A stretch of DNA of 64,000 bases, taken from a virus. The notes beneath the pieces are model-generated. The model was not told where the DNA came from and did no database searches. It saw only the letters and a program-made list of their open reading frames with translations. The DNA is taken from IMG/VR virus record IMGVR_UViG_3300025162_000052, positions 3,309-67,308 of that record. One strand, given 5' to 3'. The position numbers and the translations under genes were made by a program. Shown here one piece after another: positions 1-56,200 of this stretch (positions are counted from its first letter, which is position 1; each line of letters starts with the position of its first letter).

Positions 1-545
1 TCACAATGTTTATAGCCTGCTATGAAAGCATCTGAAATAGTATCTTTTAAATAATACCTTGTTTCTTGATTACAACATGAAATTTCAACATCTTCATATT
101 GTTTAGCAACTTCTTCTAATGTTTCATTAATTGAAGTTTTTTTTGAAATAGGTTTTAGAATAACTGTATCTACATAATGAGTAGTGAAATTCATTAGTTC
201 TAATTCATAAGCATAATCATCTCTTTTTTGAATACTTTTGAATTTATCTATTTTAGTATCACTTGCTCTGTAATAACTATGTATTTCATAAATAAACTCA
301 ACTTCAACTTCTTTACCTACCATATCATCACTTGCATTAGTGATTTGTGGTAGTGGTAATGAGGGATTAGTAGAACAAATGATTTTATCTCTATTAAGAT
401 TAACATCATGTCTTAATAATGTACCTTCACATGAATATACTTTATTTACATAAATATTATTCTCAATTAACCAATCATTTTTTCTTATTTCTGCTTTATC
501 ATCTATTACATAGTAATAGTCTGATATTTTAATTAGTTTCTTCAT
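1..545 (-). CDS. hypothetical phage protein (partial, runs off window start)
   Basis: Not in the ORF track. Open frame from ATG at 545: MKKLIKISDYYYVIDDKAEIRKNDW...ETLEEVAKQY...DAFIAGYKHC, with no stop before position 1. Confidence 0.8.
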   Translation of the reverse strand, partial: MKKLIKISDYYYVIDDKAEIRKNDWLIENNIYVNKVYSCEGTLLRHDVNLNRDKIICSTNPSLPLPQITNASDDMVGKEVEVEFIYEIHSYYRASDTKIDKFKSIQKRDDYAYELELMNFTTHYVDTVILKPISKKTSINETLEEVAKQYEDVEISCCNQETRYYLKDTISDAFIAGYKHC

Positions 546-654
546 ATCTATATATATATTTATAAGTTTATATTCATTTTAACTATAACAATTTAGTACT
601 ATTTCTAGTAGTCTCTTATACTACTTAAAAGTATGTTATTTTATAAGAGATTTT

Positions 655-773
655 GTGTGTTTAAATTTTAACATTAATAATAACTTTTACTAACTGGTAG
701 GCTCTTATCCCTACTAAGATATTTCAGTCATTATTACCAAGCTACTAACTTAATAGTTTTCTATTAAACACAC
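655..773 (-). ncRNA. intergenic multibranch RNA structure
   Basis: Perfect 10-bp inverted repeat GTGTGTTTAA 655-664 / TTAAACACAC 764-773. It encloses an 11-bp stem (with a G-U pair on the minus strand) and a GTAGG/CCTAC hairpin. Confidence 0.45.
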
Positions 774-789
774 TGGGATTTCAACCAAT

Positions 790-996
790 TTATTTACTTT
801 CAGGAACTAAATAAAAATCACTTTCTCTTATTGCTAATAAGACATTATTGTATTTTGTAGTATCTATTTCATGTATATTATTTGTATCCCAAGCATAACT
901 ATCAGCTATTTTAATAGCTTCTTCTTTTGTATTAGCATATACAATACATGCTCCTAAATTATAATTTGTTTGATAACCGAATATAAACGTTTTCAT
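790..996 (-). CDS. small hypothetical protein
   Basis: ORF track 790..1041; the likely start is MKTFIFGY at 996. Contains an IVYANTKEEA motif typical of small phage proteins. Confidence 0.75.
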   Translation of the reverse strand: MKTFIFGYQTNYNLGACIVYANTKEEAIKIADSYAWDTNNIHEIDTTKYNNVLLAIRESDFYLVPESK

Positions 997-1015
997 TGTA
1001 TATAATTTTATAAGG

Positions 1016-1129
1016 TTATTTACTATAATCAATACTACCACTTTTTCCTTTAGTAGTATTAGCTGTCTCTTTAACAGCTTTTTTGATTTTCTTTTTTTGT
1101 ATTAGTTTTGATGTCTCTCGTGTTGGCAT
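1016..1129 (-). CDS. 37-aa basic peptide
   Basis: MPTRETSKLIQKKKIKKAVKETANTTKGKSGSIDYSK*. AT-rich leader; fills the gap between neighbouring genes. Confidence 0.5.
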   Translation of the reverse strand: MPTRETSKLIQKKKIKKAVKETANTTKGKSGSIDYSK

Positions 1130-1159
1130 ATTAATTTAATTATTAATTGTTAATAATAG

Positions 1160-1257
1160 TGGCATATAGTAGAATCGAACTACCTATACATTTAAGTTTT
1201 CCTGTATCCAATGTCATAAAACTATTAGCTATTTAGTTCTCTATTGGAATATATGCC
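1160..1257 (-). ncRNA. tRNA-like element (acceptor stem plus T-arm, non-tRNA core)
   Basis: Minus strand: GGCATAT/ATATGCC 7-bp acceptor stem with discriminator A; T-arm GGTAG-TTCGATT-CTACT. The interior is a long TCCAAT...ATTGGA stem plus a TACA/TGTA hairpin instead of D and anticodon arms. Confidence 0.65.
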
Positions 1258-1267
1258 GAATTAAGCT

Positions 1268-1540
1268 TTATTTTACTATTAAATTATACCATTGTAATTC
1301 TTTTATGTTTTTATTCCAATATTCAGAATCTTTTCTTGTAACTAATCCTATTTTATTATCGTACATATATTCGTATAAAGGAATAGTTATAATTTGTTCT
1401 GTAGATTCTTTTGTTTCTTCTATAAAATAACTATTATAATGTATTATACAAGGAACTCCTTTATATAATCCAATAGTCTTACTGTTTATTGGTGGTAATA
1501 ATTTAGTACATTTTACTAAGTTTTTCTTTAAAAGTCTCAT
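1268..1540 (-). CDS. hypothetical protein
   Basis: ORF track 1268..1576; the likely start is MRLLKK at 1540. Confidence 0.65.
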   Translation of the reverse strand: MRLLKKNLVKCTKLLPPINSKTIGLYKGVPCIIHYNSYFIEETKESTEQIITIPLYEYMYDNKIGLVTRKDSEYWNKNIKELQWYNLIVK

Positions 1541-1571
1541 ATTATATAAATTTAAATTGTTAATATTAAAA

Positions 1572-1932
1572 AACAAACTCTTCTACCTTCTAAGTAAGGT
1601 AGTAGTGATATGAACTGACTTTTCACAACTCTATGGTTGGTATAACATCCAGTTTGCATGCTGCCTTCTCACATGGCATATCACTATCATTTTAAAACAA
1701 CAACTATCTTAGTAGTTTGATTAATTATAAGAATCTCTTCTTGTAAGTCTAATTGACTGTAATTTCTACAGGTTTTCTTACCTAATTATTAATCAAACTT
1801 AGTTGTAAATGTTTAACATTTAGATATTACTCTATCTCTATAGAGTGTACATGGTTGAGAATGGCTAATATAGCTATACTTACATCTCCTTGCTCCATTA
1901 GTAATATCTGTTTTAATTTGAAAGAGTTTGTT
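1572..1932. ncRNA. large (~360 nt) structured non-coding RNA candidate
   Basis: Closing stem 1572-1582/1922-1932 (11 bp). Nested perfect stems: 1583-1589/1596-1602, 1603-1612/1677-1686, 1714-1725/1788-1799, 1822-1831/1900-1909. No ORF in the track. Confidence 0.6.
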
Positions 1933-2049
1933 ATATTATTATTAAACATAGGCGATACTCAGACTATAGAATCATGTGCGCACATTATCTAATTTCTATC
2001 AGTATGTAGTCTGTGTATAACTTTTACCTATGTAAATAGATATTTTATT

Positions 2050-2126
2050 TAACGATATACGGAATCAACCGTTATCCTTACTCTTATTAGGAGTACGAGC
2101 TAAAGTTATATATGCTCCCTATCGTG
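2050..2126 (-). tRNA. degenerate tRNA / tRNA mimic, anticodon AAT (Ile)
   Basis: Cloverleaf on the minus strand: acceptor ACGATA/TATCGT, D-stem GAGC/GCTC, anticodon arm TACTC-CTAATAA-GAGTA, T-arm ACGG-TTGATT-CCGT. It lacks the D-loop GG, the T-loop C56 and an encoded CCA. Confidence 0.6.
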
Positions 2127-2282
2127 TTTATATATCTATTATATAAATTAATATGATAAATTTCAGCTCTCTATATAAGGATTAACCTTTGTTATCTGTT
2201 CACATGAACATTACTTGTGGTAATAACAGCAGCACTTTATTATCATATTATAGTATTAATTATATGCATTGGTAGAGGAATA

Positions 2283-2314
2283 CAAAATTAATAAATTATA
2301 TTTAATCTACCAAA
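2283..2314 (-). promoter_or_regulatory. Bacteroidota primary-sigma promoter (leftward)
   Basis: Minus strand TTTG-N20-TAATTTTG matches the -33/-7 consensus TTTG-N19-21-TAnnTTTG. Confidence 0.65.
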
Positions 2315-2542
2315 TTAGTGGTATAGAAATTAGTAGTAAAGTTAAATTGATAATATGTCCGATAATGGAAATATCGAGATTACCAAATTAATATACTACA
2401 ATTTATAAAATAATGATTAATAGTTAATTAGAAGGACAAATGTATAATGTAGTTTACAATGTAAGTAAGTAAACTTGACATTATAAGTAACACATAATTG
2501 ACATAGATTCTTGGTGATGTAAATAATACTTTACTATGACTG

Positions 2543-2695
2543 CTGTAACTATCTGATACTGCTAAAGAGAGTCCTTCTCTTTATAATTTTTCAACTCTCA
2601 GTGAAGTTTACGTAACGTTGAGAGTTTTCGAATGAAAATGAGAATATTTCGTCTTAATTTTCAAAGACTCGTCAGAGGTTTTAGTTTATATTAGC
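2543..2695 (-). ncRNA. hammerhead ribozyme candidate (type I topology, large stem III insertion)
   Basis: CUGACGA (2675-2669), then stem II GUCUU/AAGAC, then GAAA (2650-2647). Stem III AUAUU pairs with AGUAU, giving an AUC cleavage triplet at 2557-2555. Stem I is AG..UAGUU paired with AACUA..CU. Confidence 0.6.
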
Positions 2696-2958
2696 TATTA
2701 TTAATTAATTTGTTAAAATTCATAGTTGTTTTAATAGTTGGAATAGTAGTGTAGGAGTAATAGTCATTTATTACCTTTATCTCATCACTAAACTTAACCC
2801 TTATATTATATATATATTATCTACTATATATAATATACACCTTCGCCTTATAATTGTGTAACGTTATAACTTAAACCCTTTCAAGATCAAGCCATTACAT
2901 AAATTGTCCAACTATGACAACTCTGTCACTCAATTATTTAGCACTATTTTGTCCAATT

Positions 2959-3026
2959 GCTTAATTAACCCTAACCCTTCCCACTTACAACTGTCTGTAC
3001 TTATTCAAATGTTAGGGTAATTAAGC
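2959..3026. repeat. long inverted repeat / hairpin
   Basis: GCTTAATTAACCCTAAC 2959-2975 pairs with GTTAGGGTAATTAAGC 3011-3026 (one bulge). Confidence 0.6.
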
Positions 3027-3030
3027 TTTT

Positions 3031-3068
3031 AAAAGATACACTCCAACTTATAGTGTTAGAGTGTATCT
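3031..3068 (-). terminator. intrinsic terminator candidate after 3075..3473
   Basis: AGATACACTC/GAGTGTATCT 10-bp stem followed by a short T run on the minus strand, just after the stop codon. Confidence 0.55.
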
Positions 3069-3074
3069 AATTTT

Positions 3075-3473
3075 TTAATGTACTAAAGACAAGTCTTCAA
3101 TTGCCTGTTCGGTAGTTTTGGTAACCGGAGTAGCAATTTCATCAATGTTGAATATTTCAGCTTTACCTAATAAGGTTGAGCCTTGTAATACGTCCATTAC
3201 TGAAGCTTCTGCAATTTTACTCCAATTAATTCTTCTTCCGAATGCATCAGCTTCAGCTTCATTGTAGTTAAGTAAATAAGTTTTACCAACTACTAATCCT
3301 GTACGTTGTGCAATTGTACCACTCAAGAATAAACGATTTGGTGCTTTACCCGAAATCACTTTAAGCATTACATTTTGGGCATTGTTTTTATCTGTAGCAG
3401 AGTGTACTTTACCTGCTTTGTCTGTAAACTGGCTACGATTTTCAACTGTAGCTAATACCATTCCTGTTACCAT
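3075..3473 (-). CDS. hypothetical beta-rich protein, first gene of the leftward unit
   Basis: 132-aa ORF with a protein-like composition, followed by a terminator. Confidence 0.8.
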   Translation of the reverse strand: MVTGMVLATVENRSQFTDKAGKVHSATDKNNAQNVMLKVISGKAPNRLFLSGTIAQRTGLVVGKTYLLNYNEAEADAFGRRINWSKIAEASVMDVLQGSTLLGKAEIFNIDEIATPVTKTTEQAIEDLSLVH

Positions 3474-3918
3474 TGTATTTACGGTTTTAATAATTTATTA
3501 ATATAACAGCGTTATTTCATACGCAGAACTTGTCCATAGTTCATCAGAACTTTAGGTATCTTACACAATTGTTATAGGACTGATAACAACTGCTTGCAGA
3601 ACTACCTACATAAAGTCCGGTAATTCATGGGGATTATTGTACTTAGTAAATATATTACTATATTCACTATTCGCGACCCAGTCCCCTGTTTGGTCGTCAA
3701 TGTTGAGGAGTGGTATTTTGTCTAGGTGGTACTTGCTCTCAATAACATATAATTTTATAAAATTTTAAAAATTAATACTATATCATTACTTACAAAATTT
3801 TATAAAAAATTTTTATAGCTACATTACTACTATCTCATCATATACCTTACCACTATCTACATTACTCTATAACACTCAATACTTTCTCATTTTTATAATT
3901 ATAATTGTAGGAAAATTA

Positions 3919-3950
3919 TTTGGTAGTCTCACTTTTTTTAATTATATTTG
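3919..3950 (+). promoter_or_regulatory. Bacteroidota primary-sigma promoter of the rightward operon
   Basis: TTTG(3919-3922)-N20-TATATTTG(3943-3950). Confidence 0.75.
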
Positions 3951-3989
3951 CACATAATTTAAATGATATGTTTAATTAATTTGTTGAAT

Positions 3990-4172
3990 ATGAGGAAATT
4001 GATTATTACGGTTGGCGTGATTAGTATATTTGTAGTTATGTTGTATGGTGTGGCTATTATGATGATAGATAGGGTTAATACTAGGATAGATCATCGTATA
4101 GATAGTTTACAAAAGAGTATAGATAGTGTATTATACATACGTAAATTAGACAGTTTGACACATGGAAAGTAA
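3990..4172 (+). CDS. small membrane-anchored protein
   Basis: Likely start is MRKL at 3990. N-terminal hydrophobic helix followed by a short coiled coil (IDSLQKSIDS). Confidence 0.6.
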   Translation: MRKLIITVGVISIFVVMLYGVAIMMIDRVNTRIDHRIDSLQKSIDSVLYIRKLDSLTHGK

Positions 4173-4220
4173 ATATTATGTACCGGAAATAGATGAATTT
4201 TGTACTGATATTCCACTAAA

Positions 4221-5009
4221 ATGAAAGGTACATTGAAACATAATAACCCACATAAAAAGTCTATAGAATTAGATAAAGAAGGTAAACATTATATAATAGA
4301 GGGTGTTTCATTAGAAAGAGTTACACATTGGTTAGAGCAATATACTAAACCATTTGAGCCTATGAATACAGCTATAGGAGTACGACATTCTCATAAGACA
4401 AAAGGAGAACCATCATTATCTCCAGATAAGTTAGTCCACTACTGGAACTTAAATAGTAAGCGTAGTAATTCTTACGGTACAGGAACACATTGTTTTGCAG
4501 AAATGTATATAATGGATAATGAAAATACTATACCTGATTTACCACGAGAAAAAGCAGTAGTATTATTCTTACAAGATATATTGAAAGATTATAAAGTAAT
4601 AGGTGTTGAGTTAAGAGTGTATTCTAAAAAGTATAAATTAGCAGGTACTATTGATCTACTATTACAACATTCCAGTACAGGAAAATATTTAATAGTAGAT
4701 TGGAAAACATCTAGTAATATAGATAAGACTTATAATAAGTTAAAAGAACCATTTAAATTATTCCCACAGAGTAAGAGAATGGAGTATGAATTACAACTAG
4801 GGGCTTATAAGTTATTGGGTTTCATTGAGTTACCAAACCATCTGATTCTACGAGTTAAACCTGATGAGTTTGAAACATCAAAACTAGTTATATTGAATGG
4901 TAATGGAACATATTCAATAGAATTAGTAAATCATATTCCTGAACAATTGATACAGGAAGAACTTGAAAAACGCGCTGATTATGAAGAAGAAATTAAAGGA
5001 TTACTATAA
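4221..5009 (+). CDS. PD-(D/E)XK exonuclease (RecB/Cas4-like)
   Basis: Motifs GTGTH, E-L-R-V, LAGTIDLL, IVDWKT and QLGAY. Confidence 0.9.
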   Translation: MKGTLKHNNPHKKSIELDKEGKHYIIEGVSLERVTHWLEQYTKPFEPMNTAIGVRHSHKTKGEPSLSPDKLVHYWNLNSKRSNSYGTGTHCFAEMYIMDNENTIPDLPREKAVVLFLQDILKDYKVIGVELRVYSKKYKLAGTIDLLLQHSSTGKYLIVDWKTSSNIDKTYNKLKEPFKLFPQSKRMEYELQLGAYKLLGFIELPNHLILRVKPDEFETSKLVILNGNGTYSIELVNHIPEQLIQEELEKRADYEEEIKGLL

Positions 5010-5392
5010 TGAGTAAAATATTTGATAACCTATCAATAATAAATAAACCATATACATTTGAAGAGTTTAAAACTGTTATGTATAAGAAATATAATAAACC
5101 ACGTAAATTAGGAGGGTTAATAGATGGTAATGGACAAGTTATTGATATTTTTGAAGTCCCAATTAGATACCCTTTATTATTACGAAATAAAGGAATACTT
5201 GAATTAACTAATGATAATTGGTTAGAGTTATATGAACAGTATTTAAGAGAATGGGATCTACAATATAAAACTGTAGAATATTTAAAATGGAGAGACAGTA
5301 TGTTAGATATACCAGCTATAATACAACCAGAGTATTTAGAAATAGATTTACAATACGAAGATCCAAATAATAGACGTAATGGATTATGGTAA
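5009..5392 (+). CDS. hypothetical protein
   Basis: 127-aa ORF, translationally coupled to the nuclease gene. Confidence 0.7.
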   Translation: MSKIFDNLSIINKPYTFEEFKTVMYKKYNKPRKLGGLIDGNGQVIDIFEVPIRYPLLLRNKGILELTNDNWLELYEQYLREWDLQYKTVEYLKWRDSMLDIPAIIQPEYLEIDLQYEDPNNRRNGLW

Positions 5393-5499
5393 ATGAAATA
5401 GATTTAGAAAAAAAAGAATACGAAGGATGTTTATTTATATTAATAGTAATACTAACTATATCATGTTTAATCGGATTAATATATGGATACTTCTTTTAA
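5386..5499 (+). CDS. 37-aa single-TM peptide
   Basis: MVNEIDLEKKEYEGCLFILIVILTISCLIGLIYGYFF*; overlaps both neighbouring genes. Confidence 0.55.
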   Translation: MVNEIDLEKKEYEGCLFILIVILTISCLIGLIYGYFF

Positions 5500-6535
5500 T
5501 TCTAAATTCCTGGTACTCAGTTATTTACCACGCACTGCTTGTCCATTGTATAGACTAATTAATCCATACTCTAAGTTATCATCAATGGGTGTAGGAACAA
5601 AGATATTAGAGTGTGATGGTGATATAAAGATGAGAAAGAGTGATTTTAATGAGTATAAATATATAGTACTACATACAGGATTTTGTAGTTTAGAGTTAAT
5701 TAAACAACTCCATAGTATAGGTAAAATTGTAATAGTAGATAGTGATGATTATCATATATTGCCAGAATATCATGTATTACATAAGTTTTATAAAACATCC
5801 AATACAGATAGAATAAGTAGTGTACTACGAGCAGCAGATATAATAACAACTACTAATGAGTTTTTAGCGGATAAATTAAAAGAGTATAATAAAAATGTAT
5901 TTGTAATACCTAACTTTATACATCAAAGTGAGTATATGTATTTTCCACAAGTACAGGAAAAGGATTATAGTAAATTAAAAATTGCATATACTGGTGGTAC
6001 TTGTCATCGTCAAGATATAGATGTAATTAAAGGATTAAATAGAGAATTAATGAAAAACAGTATAAACTATGAACTACATCTATATGGTAAAGGAAAAAAT
6101 AAAGAGTTTGACCATTATTTTAATTTACTCACAGATAATGGAAAATATGTAGATAATTTAGTATATCATGATTTTGTGGAAACTAAAGATTATTATTCTA
6201 TATTCAATGATTTTAATATAGTATTAGCACCTTTAAAAATTGATACATTCAATAAATGTAAAAGTAATTTAAAATATTTAGAAGCTACATATTTTAAATG
6301 TATACTAGCTGCAAGTAATATAAGTACATATAGTAAGGACATCAATAATGGGCATAATGGAATATTATTTAGTAATATAAAGGAATTAGTGAGTAAATTA
6401 CAATTAATAGAGCATAGACTTAAATTAGTATTACCAGAAATAATAAATTTAGCTGAAGAACAAATAGAAGAAGAATATAATATTAACCAGATAATGGAAA
6501 ATTTTTTAAAACAACTTAACACATGGAGAGTATAA
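5483..6535 (+). CDS. glycosyltransferase, GT-B fold (GT4-like)
   Basis: Motifs YRL..P, DSDD, ADIITTT..L, VIPNF, YTGG..H..D and PL..FNKCKSNLKYLEA. Confidence 0.85.
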   Translation: MDTSFNSKFLVLSYLPRTACPLYRLINPYSKLSSMGVGTKILECDGDIKMRKSDFNEYKYIVLHTGFCSLELIKQLHSIGKIVIVDSDDYHILPEYHVLHKFYKTSNTDRISSVLRAADIITTTNEFLADKLKEYNKNVFVIPNFIHQSEYMYFPQVQEKDYSKLKIAYTGGTCHRQDIDVIKGLNRELMKNSINYELHLYGKGKNKEFDHYFNLLTDNGKYVDNLVYHDFVETKDYYSIFNDFNIVLAPLKIDTFNKCKSNLKYLEATYFKCILAASNISTYSKDINNGHNGILFSNIKELVSKLQLIEHRLKLVLPEIINLAEEQIEEEYNINQIMENFLKQLNTWRV

Positions 6536-7167
6536 ATCCATATATTGCTATTTATACACACAAGGTAAAGGAATATTGTGACAAAGAGTTTTTTGAACAA
6601 CCTGAATTAAAAAAGTATAAGTATTATATAGTAGATAATACCAATGATAATTTAGAGTATTTTAATAAGTTAAAAACATTATATACTAATAATATAACTC
6701 ATATTGATATACCTATTACACCTAAAGAATCATTATTTAGAAGGAATGTAGTAGAATCAGTAAATTATTTACGTAATGATTTTATTAGTAAACCTGAGTA
6801 TGATAATTTTATTATAATAGAAAGTGATTTAATACTTCCTGATAACGGAATAGAAATGTTATATAATAGTATAAGTAAAACTGTTAATTGGGGAATTATA
6901 GGAGGACTATATTATAAAGGATTTCATGATTATAATAAAATAGGAGTACAGCAAACTCATCATGTATTAAGTGGTTGTTCATTGTATAATAGAAAATTAA
7001 TAGAAGATACTGTATTTAGAATAGATGATAGTAATAAAGGAGCATTTCCAGATGCATGGATGAGTGTAGATGCTGGGGATAAAGGTTATAATTTATATAA
7101 TAATCATGATATTAAATGTAAACATTTACATGCTAAAGATGGACATAGAGGATGGAACAAACTATAA
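6523..7167 (+). CDS. glycosyltransferase, GT-A fold (GT2-like)
   Basis: Motifs IVDN, N.LR, IIIESD (DxD-like), GGLY, GCSL, FPD and a C-terminal C.H. Confidence 0.75.
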   Translation: MESINPYIAIYTHKVKEYCDKEFFEQPELKKYKYYIVDNTNDNLEYFNKLKTLYTNNITHIDIPITPKESLFRRNVVESVNYLRNDFISKPEYDNFIIIESDLILPDNGIEMLYNSISKTVNWGIIGGLYYKGFHDYNKIGVQQTHHVLSGCSLYNRKLIEDTVFRIDDSNKGAFPDAWMSVDAGDKGYNLYNNHDIKCKHLHAKDGHRGWNKL

Positions 7168-7709
7168 TTGAGTATAAACCAACAATATTTAATACACCTA
7201 AAAAGTTAATAAAATTAGGTACTGCGTGGGTAGGATTAGAATCTATAATATATGATATACTTGTTAGGTTTAATATAAATACAAATATTGCATTAGAATT
7301 TGGAGTAGAGTGGGGGTTTTCTACAGCAGCATTTGCAAATTATTTTACTCAAGTAGTAGGTGTAGATACTTTTACAGGAGATATACATAGTGGGGTAAAA
7401 CAATGTCATTTAAATAGTACAAAAGAAAATTTAAAAGATTTTGATAATATAGTACTAATAAAAAGTGATTATAAAGAGTTTATAAAAAATAATAAAAATC
7501 GTTATAATTTAATACATGTAGATATAGTTCATGATTATGAACATACTTATGAATGTGGGTTATGGTCAGTTAATCATAGTGATGTGACATTGTTTCATGA
7601 TACAGTATCTTTTAATGATGTTAATAATGCTGTGAAAGATATATGTAAATTAATTGGTAAAACTTATTATAATTATCCAAAACATTATGGATTGGGAATA
7701 ATAGTATGA
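7152..7709 (+). CDS. class I SAM-dependent methyltransferase (Methyltransf_24-like)
   Basis: Motifs LEFGVEWGFST, GVDTF.GD, LIHVD..HDYE and LFHD. Confidence 0.85.
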   Translation: MEQTIIEYKPTIFNTPKKLIKLGTAWVGLESIIYDILVRFNINTNIALEFGVEWGFSTAAFANYFTQVVGVDTFTGDIHSGVKQCHLNSTKENLKDFDNIVLIKSDYKEFIKNNKNRYNLIHVDIVHDYEHTYECGLWSVNHSDVTLFHDTVSFNDVNNAVKDICKLIGKTYYNYPKHYGLGIIV

Positions 7710-44783: not shown

Positions 44784-47291
44784 ATGAGTAGATTTTGGAC
44801 AAGGCGAGATAATCAAGGTACATCACAATATGTACCTTTACCTCTTGATTTTATAGCAGGTAAAATACAACAAGAACAACAAGGATTAGATGTAAGTAGA
44901 GATGCTGTAACTAATGCTATATTAAAGAGTGGGTACATAAATGCACAAACAGGGGATTATAGAAATTTAGATCAAACTCAATTATATTTACAAAAACAAA
45001 AAGAAGTACAACAAAAGAAAGAAGCACTTATAGATGAATTAAATAAAGACCCTTATGCATGGAAAGATGTGTATAATAAAACTAATAGAATGAAACAAGA
45101 ATATTATACTGACCCTGATATAATAAGAATGGAAGATGCATCTAAACATTATGATGCGTTATTAAAAGAACGTAATAAATTAGGTAAAGACTATAGAAAT
45201 TATAGAGACCCTTATACTGAAATGAAAGGAGTTACTACTAATGAAAAGGGAGTTATAACAAATGCAAATTCATTTGAATTTACCGGATTAAAAGGGTACT
45301 CAGATAGACATATAGAAGGTAGTAAAATAATGGAAGGATTTAAAGCTAGTGGAGAGAAAACAGGATATAGTTTTGTAAATCCAATTACCGGAATGATAGA
45401 ACATCATACAGGAGGTAGTGAACAAATAAGTCCACAACAAATTGCACAATTTGTAGGAATTAAACCTTATATTGATGTAGATGAAAAAACAGGTAAATCT
45501 ATTATGAAGTTTAATGTGGATGGAACAATGAATGAAACAGTTAATAATTTTTTAACTAGCAATGGAGGACAAGATTTTATAGATGAAATGGCATTTAATT
45601 ATAAAAAAGCAGGTAAAGAATTAACTAATGATGATATTATAAAAAAAGCCAAATTATTCTTATATGAAATAGGTAGTAAACAAATTTTTAATAAATCAGA
45701 AAATGATTTTACTATGAAAAATGATGCTGTTCATGCAGGAAAAGAAATAGAAAAATTTAAAAGAAGTCTGAACGCTGAAGTTCCAATATATGCCCCAGTA
45801 GATAATACATTAAAAACTCCAGAAGATTATAATAAAAAGAAAGTAGATTTACAAAAAAGTAAAACAGGATTAGTTAGTATAGAAAATACATTAAATACTA
45901 ATTATAATGATATTGGTACAGAAATGGGTGTACAAAATGATAAAGATATTATACCAAATGGAGTAAACATTTATTTAGGTAAAGATAAAATATCTACAAC
46001 TAAAAAATTAGTACAACAAGCTAATCAAGCTATCAATCCTGATAGTAATACAATTGACCTTGAAAAATTAGCTAAAATAAATAGTAATCACCCTATATTA
46101 AAATATAAGAATGATAAAGATAAAATAACTAATATTACACAGGGTATATTATTAGTAAATGGACAACAACAGGAGTATAATAATGTTAGAAACAAAGTTG
46201 TTGAAGTAGAAAATCATATTAATGCTATAGATAATGAGATAAATAAACAATATAATTTAGAAAATGAATATAATAAATTAGAAGATAAAGATAAAAAATT
46301 ATTTAAAACTAAAGATGATTTTATTAATTACATTAAAACAAACGACATTAAATATGCAGATTTAAGTAATCAAGAACAACGTATTGGTAATTATACAACA
46401 TCTGAAGATTATTTAAGACAGTTTGATAAAATTAAAAATAAATATAGTGAAGTTAAAAATGAAATATTAAAATTTAATCCTTCATTAGGTATAGAAGGTA
46501 TGACTTATGAACCCGGTAAAAATAGTACACAAGATAAATATTTAGACCAAATAAATAGATTGTTTAAAGGAAATAAAGATGCTGTAGGTAAATTGAAAGT
46601 ACTTAATAGTTCAGAAAATATAAATGATAAAATAGCTAATGGTGAAATTAAAGACCTAGATGCAAGCAATATTAAATTAGTACCGCATACAGATAATAAT
46701 ACAGGTAAAACTAGTTTTATAATGTATTATAATAATTTAAAACCAGATAAAGATGGTAATTTAATACCTACTAAAGAGTCTAAATCTATTAAAATAGAAG
46801 CAGACGAAAGTACTGTTAAAGCATGGAGAGATGGTATATTACAAGGAGAAACAGAAAATAATGTTAAACATCAAAATGGTTCTATGAGTAGTACAAGACA
46901 TAATCAAGTTAAAAATCAATTAGGTATAGGATTTGCAGAAACTATGTTTAAAGATCCAGAAGTAATTAATGAAGGCACTTTAACTAATCTTAAAATAGGT
47001 GACGCTGTTACTCAACAAGCTGATAATATATATATACCTAATACAGAATTTACTGTGATAGGTGGTAAAGGTACAGGAAAAGATAGATTGTACACTATTA
47101 AAATAACTAATACATCTACAGGGGAAGTATTAGAAAAACAAGCAAAAATATCTGCTATAAAACAAATTATAGGTAGAGTAGGTATAAGAGCAAGTGAACA
47201 TTTAAATAGTAGTAATTTAGAAGTAAATCAAGGACTTACTTTACAAAACAAGATAAAGGAAGAGTTTAATAAAACTGATAAGAATGAGTAA
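44784..47291 (+). CDS. virion cargo protein 2
   Basis: N-terminal SQYVPLP.D motif; helical; lies between cargo 1 and the RNAP. Confidence 0.7.
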   Translation: MSRFWTRRDNQGTSQYVPLPLDFIAGKIQQEQQGLDVSRDAVTNAILKSGYINAQTGDYRNLDQTQLYLQKQKEVQQKKEALIDELNKDPYAWKDVYNKTNRMKQEYYTDPDIIRMEDASKHYDALLKERNKLGKDYRNYRDPYTEMKGVTTNEKGVITNANSFEFTGLKGYSDRHIEGSKIMEGFKASGEKTGYSFVNPITGMIEHHTGGSEQISPQQIAQFVGIKPYIDVDEKTGKSIMKFNVDGTMNETVNNFLTSNGGQDFIDEMAFNYKKAGKELTNDDIIKKAKLFLYEIGSKQIFNKSENDFTMKNDAVHAGKEIEKFKRSLNAEVPIYAPVDNTLKTPEDYNKKKVDLQKSKTGLVSIENTLNTNYNDIGTEMGVQNDKDIIPNGVNIYLGKDKISTTKKLVQQANQAINPDSNTIDLEKLAKINSNHPILKYKNDKDKITNITQGILLVNGQQQEYNNVRNKVVEVENHINAIDNEINKQYNLENEYNKLEDKDKKLFKTKDDFINYIKTNDIKYADLSNQEQRIGNYTTSEDYLRQFDKIKNKYSEVKNEILKFNPSLGIEGMTYEPGKNSTQDKYLDQINRLFKGNKDAVGKLKVLNSSENINDKIANGEIKDLDASNIKLVPHTDNNTGKTSFIMYYNNLKPDKDGNLIPTKESKSIKIEADESTVKAWRDGILQGETENNVKHQNGSMSSTRHNQVKNQLGIGFAETMFKDPEVINEGTLTNLKIGDAVTQQADNIYIPNTEFTVIGGKGTGKDRLYTIKITNTSTGEVLEKQAKISAIKQIIGRVGIRASEHLNSSNLEVNQGLTLQNKIKEEFNKTDKNE

Positions 47292-50200
47292 TACAAATGA
47301 TTTATATAATTATTTAAATCCATCTGATAATTCTGATAAAGAAATAGATGAGTTCTTGAAGCGGGCTATAAAAGCCCCTTCTTCTACTCCATATTTACCA
47401 ACAGGTGTTGAAGGTGAAAGTAGAATATATGAAATACCAGAAAATGTAAAAAACTTTGAAGGTTATGTAGATTTAACTAAAACTAATTTAGGTGATTGGA
47501 ATAATGTATTAGAACAACGAGCTAAGAATCAAAGTTCATGGGAAGTAGCAGGAAATGCTGCGAAACGATTTGGAGCTACTACACTAACTAAATTTGGACA
47601 AGGTGTAGGATTTATAGGTGGATTTTTAGATTGGGCATCTGGAGGATTTGGTATAGATAATATATCTAAGATGACTGATAATGGAGTTAGTAAGATGTTT
47701 GAAGGATTAGAAAACTGGGCAAAAGAACAATTACCTATATACCACACTAAAGCATATACAGAGGGTAATGTACTACAAAAAATGGGTACATTAGGATTTT
47801 GGGCTGATGATGCAGTAGATGGATTTGCATTTATGGCTAGTGCTATGTTACCAGGTGGTATATTAAAAGGTATAGGAACAGGTACTAAATTTGGAGTTAA
47901 AGGATTACAATTAGGTAGTAAAATATCAGAAGGTGTTGAAGGATTATTTAATACTGCTAAACAAGAAGGTAAAATATTTACTAATTTAGTTACTAGAGGT
48001 GCAGCAGGGGATAAAGCATTAGAAGGTAGTAAAGTTTATAACTGGGTTAAAAATGCATTTGGTGCAAATAATATAGACCGTAATTTAATTACTACTTGGA
48101 ACACTATAGCTGAATCTGCTATGGAGGCTAGAGATGCTAAAAGACAGACGTTTGAACAACTAGTTAAACAAACTGGTAAAACTGAAGATGAATTAACTCC
48201 ACAAGAAAAACAAGATTTAAATTTAAGAGCTAGTAAAGTAGCATTAAATACATTCGGGGCTAACTTATTTATAGTAGGGTTAAGTGAACATTTTATGAAT
48301 AAGATGTGGGGTACATTAAAACCTGAAGAAAAAGCTATACAAAAGGAATCTAAAAATATATTAGAACCAGTATTAACACCATCTATTAAAGATTATGGTA
48401 AAATGATAAAACGTAATGTATTAAGTAATATGTTACGTGAAGGTGTATGGGAAGAAAATAGTCAATTAGCAGTAAGTGACTTTTTCAGAGAAAGCGAATT
48501 AGGTAAGGATAATAGAGATTTTGTATCTGGGTCATTTGGTAATATGATTAAAAACTTTACTACTGATGAAGGGCAACAAAATATTATATTAGGAGCAATA
48601 ACAGGTATATTACCTGGAGTATATCATGGTTATCATCAAGTTAAAGCTGATAATAAGTTTAGTAAAAGCATGCGTGATAATTTAGTTTATCATTTTAATA
48701 ATATTAAACAAGGTATTACTTATGCTTATGAAAAAGATGAACAAGGTAAACCTATATTAGCTAAACCTGAAGATATTTATCAAATAGATGGTATTAAATT
48801 AAATCCAACTAAATTAGACGAACTACATAAAGGATTAGCAGATTGGTTTGAGAAAACTGGTATAGTTGCTCAAATAGATCCCAAAGGTGTGGGTAGTCAA
48901 ATTAGAGATTTATTAGATTCTAAAGCAATGTATTATTATTTAAATCAAGATGGTGGGTTAGATGTACTAAAAGGACATGTTAAACTTGCTACAGAACAGA
49001 ATTTAAGAGATGCTGAAAAAAATGGTATATTAACTCCAGAATATGAAAAAGAACAAAGAGAGTTAGCAGATAATAGAATAGCACAAGCTGAAAAGTTTAA
49101 CGCATTAAATAAGCACTTACAACAAGGTAGAATAACTAATATTGATTTAGGTAAAGAGAATGATGAAGTTAGAAGTTTCAGAGAAGTTATGTTAATGAAA
49201 CAATATGATAAACTTACTGATGTTCTAGCATATAGACAATCATCTAATAAACAAGGTGAAGACACTTATCATAATTATGATGGTTCACAGGTACAGGAAC
49301 AAAAGAAAATACAAAGTACTATAAACTTAATTAATCAAGACAAATTAAGTGAAATAGATGATAAATATTTGCAACAAATTGGTATAACTAAACAAGCTTT
49401 AACTAATTTACCTAGTAATGAAATTATATCAGTTAAAGAAAAACTATTAAATAGTCTTAATAAACAAAATGATAATTTAAATAAATCTGTAGAAAAAGAT
49501 AGAACTAGCTTAAAAGATGCTAATAAAGAGTATGAAAGACTTACTAGTGAAAAAGGAATAAAAGAAGAATTTGAACTTTATAAAAAAAGTAAAGTAGAAC
49601 ATGAAGTAAAGGAAAAAGAAATTAAAGATACTATTAAAAAAGATAGAGAGTCTTATAAAAGTAATACAGCATTTGATATATTAGGTAATGATTTATTTAA
49701 TACTGAAGATAATACTAATACTTTATATGGTAAATTTGTAGATGAAAGTAATATACACCCTGACCATAAAGAAAAACATAAAAAAGAATATAGAGTTAAA
49801 GAAGATTTTACAGATAGTTTAAAAAATGCTGAACAAGTTATTAATGATAATATAGAAAAGTTCTATAATAAAGATGGTGAAATAGATAATAATGCTGTAC
49901 AACAATATGCAGCAGAAGCTAATATACTAAAATCTTTATCACCAGAAAATGCAGTTAAAGTTATTAATCAAGTACTACAAGAAGATAAAAGTATAGAAAA
50001 TAAACAACAAGTATTAGATAAAAATAATAAGGTATTAAATACTTTAGGTAAAGATGGAGAAGAACTTTTTCCATTATCTGATGATATTAAAGATATTAAA
50101 GATAAAGATAAAGTTACATTATCAGAACAAGAATCAACTAGATTAGAGAATACTGAAAAATCTATAATAGATAATTTAGGGGTTAATAGAATTAAAGTAG

Positions 50201-53200
50201 TTAATAATACTAATCTAAATGATGTTAAATATTTTGAAACTACTGATAACATAACTGATTTAGTAAAGGAATTTGATAGATTAGGCTTAAAAGATTATTC
50301 ATATTTTAGAGTAGAAAATAGTTCTATAGAAGCTTTAGAAAATAATCTTAAACAATATATAGAACATATACCAGAATCAATAACTAAGTTATTTACTCAA
50401 TTAAAAAAACAATTAGAAGATTTAAAACGTGTACAATCTAAAGGTAAAATAACTAAGTTAATTGCTAATAATTTAAAACGTATAGATGAAAGTTTAGCTA
50501 AATTAAATAAAGAATTAGAAAAACTTACATCTGAAAATACTAATGTTAAAAGTTCGGTATTATATTCAGTACTAGAACGTGGTAATAGAATAGGTGCAGG
50601 AGTACATGAAAAAGTTTCCTATATGCCATTTGCAGAAGGTGAATATCAAGATAAAATTCCTGGACATGATTATAGTGGGGAGGTACTTGATAATTATGCT
50701 AAAATATTAGATGAAAAAGTATGTGAATTTCATGTAAGACCAGATAGTAATCAATCATATAGTCAAGATAATGCTGCTGAAAAATATATTAATAATGAAT
50801 TTGCTAAAGGTAAAGGATTAAAACAAATATTAGTAGAACTTAGAAAAAATGTATTTTTATTAGGAGAGTTAAAAACTGCAATGAATAGTTTAGATTATAC
50901 AGATGTAGATGATATAGGACAACAAGAATTAGCAATGTACGATTTGGTTAATATTAAGTTAGTAGACGAAGATAAAACTAGAAATCCTGATACTATAGAA
51001 TTATGGATACATAAACCACGTGTATTGATATATGAACGAGAGAAATTAAATAAAGAGTTAAAAGATGTAGAAGATGAGCAAGAGATTAAACGTGGAGAAA
51101 ATATACTAGAATCTACTGATGAATCTTTAGATAATCTACGAGAACGGCGAAAAATATTAATAAATAATATACGTAATAATCCTATCATTAAAATTGATAG
51201 AAAAATAGGTGGTAGAATATTTGTAGGAAATACTAAAGTTGGATATGATAAATTTGCAGGTCAATTATCAGGTAAAATAGAGGGTATTTATATAAAGACT
51301 GAATCTGGTAAGTTTGAAGGGATAGATGGAAAAGTATTAGATACTAAAATATCAGATAGTTTTAATGACTACACTTCAAATGGTAATGTAATAGTAGCTG
51401 TAAAAGATGGTGATAATATTAGACTTATTTTATTAAATGTAGATAACATAGGAGAAGAAACTATTCCGTTAATACTACAGATATTACAACATAAAGTTAA
51501 TAATGAACCACATACTCAAGAAATCACAGTAGATGGTCATATTAATGGTAAGTCTATAAAACTAACAGGACAATTAGGTGATGTATTTGATACATTCTTA
51601 AAGTGGAATCCTTATGTTAGATTAGATAGGGATGGTAATGTAGTTAGAGAATTATCTGATAATAAAACACCATACAGATTTGAATTAGGTAATAAAGAAG
51701 GTAAATATGGTATATTATTTGGTAAAGATGGGTTTATTAGTAAAGATGCTATTAATGACTTAACTAATCCTATATATAAAGATCAATTAAATAATTTTAC
51801 TAAATGGCTACAAACTACTAAGAGATATAATATTGATAAAAGTAAGTTAGGTAAAATTAGTAATGTATTATTAAATAAACAGAAACTAGATTATAATAAC
51901 TTTATAACAAACTTCTTATCTACTAAAGTTCAAGTATCTGGTAAAGGAAAATCTGCCAGCGTGTCTAGTTTTCCTACATTAATATTAGACTACGATGGTA
52001 TAAAATATGAGAAAACATTAGAAGTTGTATCTAAATATGAAGATGTATTAGATAAGGAATTAACATTCGAAGAATTTGTTAATAAAACAGGTGTAGATAA
52101 TAAAGCATTAGTAAATGTATTAAAACAGACTATAAAATCTGTACAGGATAAGACTGGTAAAGAGATAAAGATCGTTATAAAAAGAATGGATGATTATGGA
52201 TTCATTACTGATAATACTATCACTCTGTCTACCAATACTTTAGAAAACCATACATCTAGTTCTATATTATCTACTATAGCTCATGAGATATTACATGCTT
52301 ATATAAATAATAATATAACGTCTAAACAACGTATTGAATTAGCACAAGAATTTAGTAATATATTAACTGCTGTAGTTAAGAATAGTATATTAGATGATAA
52401 TACTGTAAATAGTCTATTAATTAATTGGATTACTAGAAGTAGAGAATTACCTAAAAGTGACCCTACTAATAAAGATAGATTAACTATAGAAAATGAAATA
52501 GCAGAATATGTTAGAAAAACTGTTAATAAAAATAATTTTACTGAATATAAGATTAAAAGTATTGCTAAAACATTAGTAATATTATGTAATCAAACTGATG
52601 TAACAGATGAATTAATAACTTATACTAGCACTAATCCTATATTCGCTAAGTTTCTACAAAGTATTAATGTTGAAACTACTAATGAAAAGGGAGTAACTGT
52701 TAGTAAGAGTTTATATGCAAGAATAATGGAACTAATTCATAATATAGTTGATGCTATTATACCTAAGTCATCATTTACTAAAATATACGATATATTAGCT
52801 GAAAATGAGATAGAGAATAAAGAAAAGATAAGTGTTCAATTTGTAACGGAAAAAGTTGATACTAAATCTATAGTTAAAGAAACTGAATTAGAAAAGATTG
52901 ATAGAGAAGAACAACTAAAAAAAATAAATAAAGACTTAGAAAAAGAATTAGATAGAAATGAAGTATTTGGAATAGATAATAGAATTTATTTACCTAATAA
53001 TGAAATAACAGTTTATGATAAAGAAGGAAATAAGCACATTTTAGATGGTAGAGTTGTAGAAAGTGGTGCTGGAATGGGAGTAAAAACAAAATGGATATAT
53101 GATGGTAAATTAGGAGATAGACTAAAAGGAAATATTCCAGACTTATATTATAAACCTATACAAGAAATACAACAAAAATATCAACAAAAAAGAGATGAGT

Positions 53201-56200
53201 TAAATAAAGAAGTTCCAGTACAAGAAGAAACTATATCTATTTCAGAAGATGTTAAAAAAGACATTAATAATGATGCAGAACAGTTTATAGAACAAATAGT
53301 AGATGGAACAATAATAACTTCTAAAGAATCATTAACACAGGAAGATTTAAAAGTAGCTGCTGATGGTATATTTGCATGGTTAGTAGATGAACAACATATA
53401 GGATTAAAAGGTGAAACTATAGAAATACCATTTAAAAAAGATACTAAAACACAAGGTTCAGTATTAAGTAAATTAAATAAAGTTATAGAATTACAGAAAG
53501 AAGTTAATCCGGTATGGGCTGCTAACTTAAAACTACTTACTGAAAATATAGATGAATTAGAAACTATATTTAAAGCACAATTAAATAAATATAAACTTAG
53601 GTTTGATGAGAATAGAGAAGTAAAAGATGAAGATAGAAGTAAATCTGATACTAAAGATGAAGAGTCTACTAATATGGCAGGTATACAGGAACATATTAGA
53701 AAACCATACGAGAATGATTATCGTGATAGTGCTAATGGAAATATACGATTTTTAGTAGATAAATTAGCAGATGTAGAAAATAAATTAGATAGTAATGGAA
53801 AAGTAGTGTATAAACGAGATAAGACTTTTGGATTTAAAAAGTTAGCTGATAGTAATACTACTTGGAAAACACTAATGCAGAACTTACATGATGCTAGTAA
53901 TACTGATGATATATTTGGTAAGTATGATAACTATGGTGAACTGATACAGGAAGGTAAATTAGCTAAGTTAGTTAAAAGATTTCCAGTATTTAAAGAGTTT
54001 GCAGATAAGTTTAAAATAGAATGGAAAGACGGTAAAATAGTTAAAACTGGAGTTCCTAAAGAAAGATACGTGCAATTATTTAACGTATTTGAAAAGTGGG
54101 AACATATATTCTACAAAACTAGTATAAACAACACAGATAAAGGAATATTTTATAAGAGTCTAAACCAAACTAAAATGGAGACTCAAACTAGTATAATGGA
54201 ACAATGGACTAATAGTTTTATTAATTCAGACTTGTTCGACTATACTGATAATAAATATAATAAAGTAGAGTTTGGTAAAGTAAAAGCTAAATTTGATGAG
54301 TTATATAAAGACCTTATAAGTAATAGTGATTTCCAGAATACATATCCGGGAGAAACTAGAGCAGATATAGATACAAGGTCTAAAAAGTATAATACAAATA
54401 TAGAGTTTGAGAAAGCTAAACAAACTATATTAGATATAGTTAATAAATTAGGTATTAAAATAGATATGCCTACAATTGAGTTTATTATAGAAAAAATTAC
54501 TAATTCTTCCAATAGTGGAATGATTAAACTTAATGCACTTATAGGGAGTAAAGGATTAGGATTAAACTATATGATTAATAATATAGATAAAGTGGTTAAA
54601 GGCACTAGTAAAGTGAATGAGAATAACTTAGAAAAGAATAATCATATTAGTGATATTAATAAAGGTGATATTAAGAGAATAGTAAATTTCTTCATACAAC
54701 AACATCCTGAATTTATAGAAACTAATATATCAAGTGTAGAAGATGCAGATTATCATACTATGACATTGCACCATCATATAACTAGAATTGTACAAGATTT
54801 AAAGAATGGTAATTTTAGTTACTTAGATGTATTAAAATCAATGCCACAGTTTTCCAATAGTAGGTGGATTAAACAGATAGACGAGAATAGAAATAATAAA
54901 GAGTTTATAGAGAAGTTAAATGTTATAACGTTTAACTATATGAAAAATGAAAATACAGGTGATATAGGAAAGCAATATACAGATTTATCACAACTAGAAC
55001 AATCAGTACAAGTAATGACTGATTTAATGAGTGTAATTAAGGATAAAGATAATAAGGCTATTTTTACACCTATGACATTCAGTAGTAGAACTAGTTGGTA
55101 TAAATTAACTGGATTTGAACCTATTGATATTGTATTAAGTATAAATAATAAAGGTAACTTTGAGATACTAGATAATACTAGAGATACATTTATAGGGTAT
55201 TTACAAGATGAGTTAAATCGTATAGAACAAGTACAAAAGCAAGTATCAGGTGATTTACCAGAGTCAGATTGGATAGAAAAGTTCCATTATTACACATCAG
55301 CTAAAGAAGCTATTGAACGATGGGGTAAATTAGGTATAAAAATATTAGAGACAGACTTAGAGTGGAATGAAAGTAAAACTAAAGTTGTAGGTTATAATAA
55401 AGGGAATAAAGTTATTCCTATAGGTATGGGAGCAGAACTAAGATTATTTCCAGGATTACAAGAGTACTTATCACCTACTGATACAGGAACATTTGAAGTT
55501 AAGACTGATTTAAATAAATATATAGATAATATTTTACATAGTAGAATTAACGATATAATAAAACGATTTACAGAATTAGGTATAATAAGTAAACTATCAA
55601 ATGGATTATATAAGAATAGTTTAATAGATGGTAATTTATTAGAGAAACATAAAGATTATTATAAAGTTAATGATACAGGATTAACAGAAGAACAGAAAAT
55701 ATTAGTTAATAATTCAATAACTAGTAAAGCTATTCAAAATATAATAACTAATGTAGCAGTTAATCATATATCATCAGGTATAGAATTTGAGAAGTTATTA
55801 GGAATAGAACCGAGTATATGGAAAAGTAGGGGTGATGAAACTAAACGATCAAGTGTTTGGAGTTCTACTAAAGAAACCCAAGATGATAGTACATTATTAG
55901 ATAAAATGTACGAAGGTCAGGTAACTAACAATAAGAGTGAAAAAGGTGAAAGAGTTTATAATGTAGCTATAATAAAAGACATTAAACGACCTAGTTCAGT
56001 ATTTAACGATATATTTAAAATATATAAAGAACAGTATAAAAAAGAGAATCCTACTATAAATGATAAGGATGTAGATAAAATAGTAGCAAGTATATTAAAA
56101 CCATTCGGAGCAAATAATGTAACAGATGGTCAGACTTGGGCTAATCCATACAAGATGATGGATATGATGATTAGGACTGGTAGATGGTCAGATAATCACC

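Follow-up and report, generated by a model that had tools for sequence, protein, structure and literature searches.

Does a hammerhead ribozyme still work in a phage genome where its catalytic strand is preserved and its substrate strand is not found in the usual place? This question is raised by a locus on the minus strand of IMG/VR virus record IMGVR_UViG_3300025162_000052. The window analyzed here is the stretch of 64,000 nucleotides (nt) at positions 3,309 to 67,308 of this 67,308-nt record, and core positions are given on the minus strand, so that they descend from 5′ to 3′. An earlier note had proposed that positions 2695-2543 of the window form a hammerhead ribozyme with an insertion of about 80 nt and several hairpins in stem III, cleaving between 2555 and 2554. 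The core and the stem III arms are homologous to those of known phage hammerheads, the canonical substrate strand is absent, and the site 2555/2554 is at chance level. A rearranged or disabled hammerhead is the best explanation of this combination, one for which belief and doubt are evenly balanced.

The catalytic core and its family

The hammerhead nucleotides C3 to A9 occur in order as CUGACGA (2675-2669). They are followed by the stem II hairpin GUCUU-UGAAAAUU-AAGAC (2668-2651), in which GUCUU (2668-2664) and AAGAC (2655-2651) form 5 base pairs (bp) closed by G10.1-C11.1, and then by GAAA (2650-2647; G12, A13, A14 and A15.1), in the general order of a hammerhead core. These elements, and an AUC triplet further downstream, lie where the earlier note had placed them. 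On the 5′ side of the core, the first strand of stem I (positions 2.13 to 2.1, UAAACUAAAACCU, 2688-2676) has A2.6 (2681) and A2.7 (2682), which are conserved in the family described below. The pattern CTGANGA-N6-34-CGAAA is found twice in the window compared to an expectation of 0.12, and none of 100 shuffled sequences reaches two. Just one core in the 67,308-nt record, both strands included, has 4 bp or more in stem II. The second match to the pattern (51116-51152) lies inside an open reading frame (ORF) of 4,675 amino acids (aa), is without stem II, and was taken as chance.

At its gathering score, Rfam reports nothing in the window. The best local signal is Hammerhead_3, at 16.5 bits compared to a gathering score of 48.5, and RAGATH-1 (RF03152), a hammerhead family in which stem II is minimal and a hairpin lies upstream, gives no match in the window even at E values up to 10. 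The 29-nt core (2675-2647) is letter-for-letter that of a large phage hammerhead family, and the covariance model of this family, R1, scores the core of the window at 45.7 bits (E 2e-12). R1 aligns the window only with a spurious completion that has two non-pairs in stem I. The exact 29-mer, the conserved A2.6 and A2.7 and the R1 score therefore assign the core, its 5′ flank and stem II to this widespread family; as judged by sequence, the core, stem II and GAAA are homologous to it. The hammerhead identity proposed in the earlier note thus holds for these parts, while the completion that it proposed is at chance level.

The exact 29-mer, CTGAYGAGTCTTTGAAAATTAAGACGAAA, is found in more than 118 IMG/VR contigs, a lower bound among the matches listed, and in 76 bacterial genome stretches, which are mostly metagenome-assembled genomes of Clostridia, with some Bacteroidales, Elusimicrobia and others. 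In all, the invariant core recurs in more than 190 loci (L003-L204, from IMG/VR, metagenomes and genomes) in type I and type III forms, and Rfam at the gathering score reports this hammerhead in none of 18 loci tested. The family was defined in this analysis. Its general class is that of the prophage hammerheads of Perreault et al. 2011 (PMC3088659, available text), and the hammerhead lists of that paper may already contain it. No literature was found that combines hammerhead and crAssphage.

Members of the family are built in few ways. Among 151 distinct instances (viral and genome loci having 250 nt of flank on each side), 134 are short type I hammerheads and 11 are short type III hammerheads, in which stem I is a hairpin of 5-6 bp immediately before CUGA. 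Three are type I with a long stem III (L043, 123 nt; L061, 75 nt; L127, 51 nt), two are without a balanced site (L009 with an A-C mismatch, L069 with GCC at the site), and the window is the last. A balanced, well-paired substrate strand is found in 148 of the 151, and the downstream strand of the window does not provide one. An adjacent substrate strand (within 45 nt for type I or 25 nt for type III) that forms 4-5 or more contiguous bp of stem I is present in 145 of the 151 and not in the window. A clean type I completion is seen in 100 of 116 distinct viral instances. Copies of the exact core with a broken site also exist: there is a deletion in L020, the site reads GAA in L059, and in L069 it is the GCC mentioned above.

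Stem II and loop II are invariant in all 50 aligned members, with free covariation in the stems (I and III) that surround the invariant core. These 50 rows, from which R1 was built, were picked for pairing, so the percentage of paired positions is circular; this does not apply to the range of pair types seen. In the type III group of L018, L025 and L112, GUAUC/GAUAC in one stem is replaced by GUGUC/GACAC, and CUAUC with GAAAUAG is replaced by CUGUC with GAAACAG. Of 92 type I members, 87 form a stem I of 5-6 contiguous bp, 90 carry A at position 2.7, and 87 carry A or G at position 2.6; A2682 and A2681 of the window agree with this. The near-invariance of A2.7 suggests a tertiary contact with loop II. 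The R1 scores of short type I members are 61.7-78 bits in six of eight cases (L007, 52.3; L119, 49.9), and those of the long-stem-III members L043 (46.3) and L061 (46.9) are close to that of the window.

The cut falls no more than 60 nt before an ORF starting with ATG in 73 of 93 type I members, at a median distance of 40 nt. This position fits the role in mRNA processing that was proposed for prophage hammerheads in the available text of Perreault et al. 2011 (PMC3088659). In the window, unlike most type I members, the next ORF of at least 50 codons is 1,014 nt away. The window therefore shares with the family of GUCUU-UGAAAAUU-AAGAC its 29-nt core, A2.6 and A2.7, an intergenic phage position and, with some members, U15.2, but has neither the adjacent substrate strand with a stem I of 5-6 bp nor a cut about 40 nt before a start codon.

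The stem III arms and the substrate strand

The closest relative of the locus supplies the reference for what lies beyond the core. In a blastn search of window positions 1600-4200 against 50,697 phage records, the sole match is the hammerhead of the crAss-like phage cr131_1; it covers 52 nt, at 2631-2682, exactly over the core. The cr131_1 element (NC_055902, 414-500, minus strand) is a complete type I hammerhead, which reads AUCCC, CUGAUGA, the same stem II, GAAAC, AUUCUCA, a loop of 9 nt, UGAGAGU, and then the site GUC, cut before GGGAU. The best Rfam model for this homologue is RAGATH-1 (RF03152), at 34.9 bits. The flanks most similar to those of the window are found in L123 (AAAACCCU ... 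GAAAUAUUCU), which shares with it AUAUUCU at positions 15.x and AAAACC(C)U at positions 2.x, and in which the 3′ arm is followed by AUC, cut before AGGGUU. Both relatives are complete, whereas the window is not. The hammerheads of cr131_1 and its relatives L122, L123, L126 and L128 score 66-71 bits with R1 compared to 45.7 for the window. A search with the core plus AUUCUCA matched only cr131_1 itself and L122, and a search with the core plus UAU matched three viral and four metagenome stretches, all of them other family members.

Both arms of the cr131_1 stem III are present in the window as identical 7-mers. The 5′ arm, AUUCUCA, is at 2645-2639, and the 3′ arm, UGAGAGU, is at 2600-2594, with the G-U wobble included; the whole 64-kb minus strand has only three copies of TGAGAGT. 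In the window, 38 nt lie between the arms compared to 9 nt in cr131_1, and this longer loop includes a near-copy of the 5′ arm. Past UGAGAGU, the window continues with UGAAAAAU, where cr131_1 has an RUH site and its stem I strand. Since the 3′ arm of cr131_1 and L123 runs straight into the site and that of the window does not, the ancestral substrate strand is missing or displaced.

The substrate strand proposed in the earlier note lies further downstream, at 2560-2547. It consists of AGUAU (2560-2556) as positions 16.5 to 16.1, C17 at 2555, and AGAUAGUU (2554-2547) as positions 1.x, with AUC at 2557-2555. Stem III would be closed by AUAUU/AGUAU, which makes 5 bp with one G-U. Such A-U-rich closures of 5 bp, here and at 2804-2802, are common by chance in this sequence, and sites with at least 2 bp in stem I and at least 5 bp in stem III number five in the 2,500 nt downstream. 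A mismatch-penalised arm score was computed for all 39,802 UH sites on both strands. The site 2555/2554 scores 7.0 and ranks 643rd, a level of which about 1.5 sites are expected per 300 nt. In comparison, the second-best site arising by chance within 170 nt of 90 family members has a median score of 8.0, and their true sites have a median of 16.5.

Folding energies give the same picture of this site. Stem I, which the earlier note called the weak point, has 2 contiguous bp compared to 5-6 in the family, and in an energy scan it is without a negative folding energy. The minimum free energy (MFE) fold of 2700-2530 has -28.2 kcal/mol (z -0.83 against shuffles) and pairs CUGA with UCAG at the proposed site, and the forced active fold lies 11.2 kcal/mol above it, or 12.6 kcal/mol with a bulged stem I. 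With arms at the level of chance and an active fold this far above the MFE, the claim of cleavage between 2555 and 2554 is not upheld, and cleavage in cis at this site is presumably no longer efficient. Because the site is no better than chance, the locus probably represents a hammerhead that was rearranged and is now largely disabled.

In the mechanism proposed for this reading, the ancestor would have been an ordinary type I hammerhead like those of cr131_1 and L123. The window would have retained the 5′ strand of stem I with A2.6 and A2.7, CUGACGA, stem II and loop II, GAAA, and both arms of stem III. It would have lost the RUH site and the strand of 5-6 nt complementary to AACCU that normally comes right after the 3′ arm. 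A local rearrangement that added about 30 nt in loop III and placed unrelated sequence past UGAGAGU would have removed the site, and the outcome would be a recently disabled or strongly impaired hammerhead in a non-coding stretch of 1.4 kb. The loss of activity and the recency of the rearrangement are likely parts of this mechanism rather than observed ones.

Several observations weigh against a disabled element. The core, A2.6, A2.7 and the stem III arms are unchanged while the periphery is heavily altered, a pattern that would also be expected from continued selection on an active ribozyme. A substrate-like strand far above chance is found 127 nt upstream, which a pure relic does not predict. 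The site 2555/2554 has the AUC expected with U15.2, a closure of 5 bp, and the sequence AG[AUA]GUU, which is able to pair with AACCU. In addition, the family member L009 has the same A-C mismatch at 1.3/2.3. The choice among the readings rests on statistics and folding energies.

Candidate cleavage sites

Since other members use this core in type III form, both of its sides were scanned. The upstream scan yields a candidate substrate strand at 2807-2789, in which AAUAU (2807-2803) would occupy positions 16.5 to 16.1, A2802 would be A17, and AGGGUUAAGUUUA (2801-2789) would occupy positions 1.1 to 1.13. The candidate cut, between UA and A, is at 2802/2801, with AUA at 2804-2802. AAUAU would pair with AUAUU (2647-2643) as a stem III of five A-U pairs, and AGGGUUAAGUUUA would pair with UAAACUAAAACCU (2688-2676) at 11 of 13 positions. 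The locus would then be an active, permuted, type III-like discontinuous hammerhead that is cut after A2802 and has a putative stem I insert of about 100 nt (2788-2689), and cleavage would put the ribozyme body at the 5′ end of a downstream non-coding RNA. This is a tentative reading, possible but doubtful.

By pair score and by energy, 2802/2801 is the best UH site on the minus strand. Its pair score of 13.5 is the highest on the 64-kb minus strand and is reached by 4 of the 39,802 sites on both strands (0.009 per 300 nt), three of which are nearly without stem I; its energy of -3.2 kcal/mol ranks fifth of 328 on both strands. A second balanced site with a score of at least 13.5 within 250 nt is found in only 2 of 145 canonical members, which gives an empirical p of about 0.014, an optimistic value because the site was spotted by eye before the scoring was written. 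The MFE fold of 2815-2635 forms the candidate stem I together with stem II, and A1.7, A1.8, A2.6 and A2.7 match the family consensus. Precedents exist for parts of this architecture: 11 of the 151 instances are type III permutations of the core, among them the covarying group of L018, L025 and L112; an AUA site is used in L043 as well; and the discontinuous Clec2 hammerheads of mammals tolerate large inserts in loop 1, according to the available text of PMC2950038.

However, a long stem I insert is found in no other family member, the window being 1 of 151. The candidate stem I is interrupted by two mismatches or by a bulged G, and stem III is limited to its five A-U pairs. The 5′ strand of that stem is locked in an all-A/U hairpin of 12 bp (2836-2825 with 2814-2803), which ends exactly at U16.1 and competes with the candidate stem III. 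The active fold lies 3.0 kcal/mol above the MFE without this hairpin and 6.7 kcal/mol above it with the hairpin. Moreover, the candidate region shows no more structure than its shuffled versions (z +0.99), and two very stable hairpins with a U-run stand between the upstream gene and the site. The sequence of the candidate strand is also not peculiar to it: the region upstream of the core has three motifs like AGGGUU(W)AAG in a span of 190 nt (2790-2801, 2868-2879 and 2967-2978, minus strand), one copy being inside GGGUUAGGGUUAA. Across the window, the motif AGGGTTWAAKTT is not enriched, with 41 matches compared to 44.7 expected.

Two variants of the upstream site can be considered. The A/U hairpin of 12 bp might itself be stem III, with a backbone break between A14 and A15.1, in which case the active fold is 2.6 kcal/mol above the MFE. 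Alternatively, competition between the upstream and downstream strands for the core might gate cleavage. A decayed second, tandem hammerhead upstream of 2836, of which the candidate strand would be a remnant, was considered and rejected as unsupported. The best local alignment of 3030-2700 with 2690-2540 scores 28 compared to a shuffle mean of 30.3; as good a score is reached by 200 of 300 shuffles and by 77 of 167 natural decoys, and R1 gives at most 5.6 bits there.

That the locus is an active type I hammerhead as first proposed, with AUAUU/AGUAU closing about 80 nt and three hairpins, a cut after C2555 and a weak or bulged stem I, is unlikely. In topology and polarity it agrees with the type I ancestor, its AUC is what U15.2 would predict at the site, and L009 has the same AUC before AGAUA, with its A-C mismatch at 1.3/2.3. 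AG[AUA]GUU, with a 3-nt bulge, can pair with all of AACCU (2.1 to 2.5), although the criterion is post hoc and is reached at 24 sites in 128 kb (0.056 per 300 nt). All three hairpins inside stem III are present, namely UUUUC/GAAAA (2638-2634 with 2629-2625), AACUCUCA/UGAGAGUU (2626-2619 with 2600-2593) and UAAAGAGA/UCUCUUUA (2583-2576 with 2570-2563), and the last two are in the MFE fold. The first two cannot both form in full because A2626 and A2625 are common to both, which corrects the earlier picture of three coexisting hairpins. The hairpin arms resemble local duplications of the stem III arms, which fits growth of the insert while the ribozyme was in use.

The family also provides members with a long stem III (L043, L061 and L127), and in L043 (minus strand, core 6932-6997) the 123-nt stem III has three inner hairpins and is followed by the AUA cleavage site. 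The suggestion that a long insert hides the ribozyme from covariance models is supported by these precedents and by the empty Rfam result at the gathering score: L043 and L061 resemble the proposed model of the window in having a multi-hairpin insert that a covariance model does not bridge. However, these true long-insert members keep a stem I of 6 bp and stem III closures of 6-9 bp, and their MFE is the hammerhead fold, whereas the window version is 11 kcal/mol off its MFE. Together with a score below the chance median, this argues against activity at 2555/2554, as does the lack of a downstream gene.

It is highly improbable that the core acts in trans or on a far strand elsewhere, or that the upstream strand acts as a decoy by binding up stem I, which would gate a weak cleavage downstream. 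Under the post hoc criterion, which asks for 5 bp or more in stem III and for pairing of every position from 2.1 to 2.5 across a bulge of no more than 3 nt, both flanks contain a site, so that two are seen in 300 nt where about 0.056 are expected, and trans-cleaving hammerheads work in vitro (PMC2950038, available text). On the other side, the criterion was built after the data had been seen, the family offers no precedent, and no distant site is better: the next sites on the minus strand score 12.5 or less and lie within coding regions of the opposite strand. Finally, AT-rich sequence yields many short hairpins, but a chance motif unrelated to hammerheads is effectively refuted by the exact 29-mer identity with a covarying ribozyme family and by an expectation of 0.12 for the pattern.

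Genomic setting and comparison with known systems

The G+C content of the window is low (0.23-0.32), and the plus strand carries nearly all genes from 4.2 kb on. PHROGs matches identify the large terminase, portal and major head proteins. Among the 50,697 phage records, the terminase is closest, at 32-35% identity, to those of Bacteroides and Flavobacterium crAss-like phages, and the record is therefore treated as a distant crAss-like phage. The phage is present at freshwater sites, and there are DNA sequencing runs that contain 72-99% of the sequence words. The single ORF of 4,675 aa lies at 47284-61311 on the plus strand, and crAss-like phages typically encode giant virion proteins of such a size. 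In the part of the record (L121/G000) that precedes the window, the minus strand has two tRNA genes, at record positions 127-196 and 282-355, and an Rfam scan of record positions 1-7600 finds these two tRNAs and nothing else. Also upstream of the window, a 360-aa protein encoded on the minus strand at record positions 1666-2748 consists largely of pentapeptide repeats of the A(N/D)LSG type.

The hammerhead core sits inside a non-coding stretch at 1577-3074 (about 1.4-1.5 kb). This stretch contains no ORF of at least 60 aa under translation table 11, with TAG read as Q, or under table 4, and its ORFs of at least 20 aa resemble noise. Apart from the hammerhead core, Rfam gives no match in it. 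By analogy with other crAss-like phages, it may hold further RNAs. The stretch follows a minus-strand ORF of 132 aa (3473-3075), after which come two very stable hairpins (2952-3068, minus strand), directly past the stop codon and between that gene and the site 2802/2801. The first (3068-3034) has a 14-bp stem followed by UUUUAAAA, and the second (within 3033-2952) has a stem of about 16 bp formed by GCUUAAUUACCCUAAC with GUUAGGGUUAAUUAAGC. The pair has an MFE of -43.2 kcal/mol (z -6.5), and none of 200 shuffles is as stable. Lying upstream of the hammerhead region, these hairpins may act as a terminator or stabilise the RNA.

Protein searches did not lead to closer relatives of the locus. For the neighboring 132-aa protein, 32 pattern matches were found in IMG/VR, none of which is a relative by tblastn; it has no match among the 50,697 phage records and was not found in the records of L009, L123, L043 and L061. 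A pattern search of IMG/VR with the exonuclease gave no match.

In the crAss-like subgroup, the hammerhead opens a non-coding stretch, and cr131_1 and L123 are without a nearby ORF. The elements of cr131_1, L122, L123, L126 and L128 share with the window the core and a location just past the last gene of a minus-strand block. Several crAss-like loci combine a hammerhead of the family with a RAGATH-1 hammerhead on the same strand, 400-1,100 nt away, so that the two flank a non-coding RNA: L001 1-500 (cr131_1), L122 1649-2174, L123 5359-5837, L128 5140-6300 and L009 685-1714. The RNA excised between the hammerheads is conserved between cr131_1 and L122, and in L122 a tRNA follows the hammerhead pair. 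In the window, neither RAGATH-1 nor any other second hammerhead was found by Rfam and local scans. In the crAss-like loci L018 (1-1041) and L064 (498-1704), a type III hammerhead stands amid hatchet, RAGATH-6, RAGATH-7, RAGATH-7-associated and RAGATH-14 RNAs, in clusters that span about 1.5 kb.

Outside phages, the closest parallel to the upstream site is found in mammals. The discontinuous hammerheads in the 3′ untranslated regions of Clec2 mRNAs were shown experimentally to be active (Martick et al. 2008, as described in the available text of PMC2950038). In these ribozymes, the substrate and enzyme strands are split by a large loop insert, as cleavage at 2802/2801 would need. However, according to the same text, they stand in a eukaryotic mRNA context, and their sequence is unrelated to that of the window.

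As it stands, the locus is a case of hammerhead decay or remodelling, in which the catalytic strand is intact and the substrate strand is displaced. If the site 2802/2801 were active, the locus would represent the circular permutation of a ribozyme caught mid-way from a type I ancestor. It would be the sole such architecture among the 151 instances and a counterpart, in a bacterial virus, of the mammalian discontinuous hammerheads. The by-products of the analysis are perhaps more useful than the locus itself. An invariant core, missed at the Rfam gathering thresholds in all 18 loci tested, is present in hundreds of phage and prophage loci in type I and type III forms, and the non-coding stretches of crAss-like phages combine this core with RAGATH-1 hammerheads, hatchet, and RAGATH-6, RAGATH-7 and RAGATH-14 RNAs.

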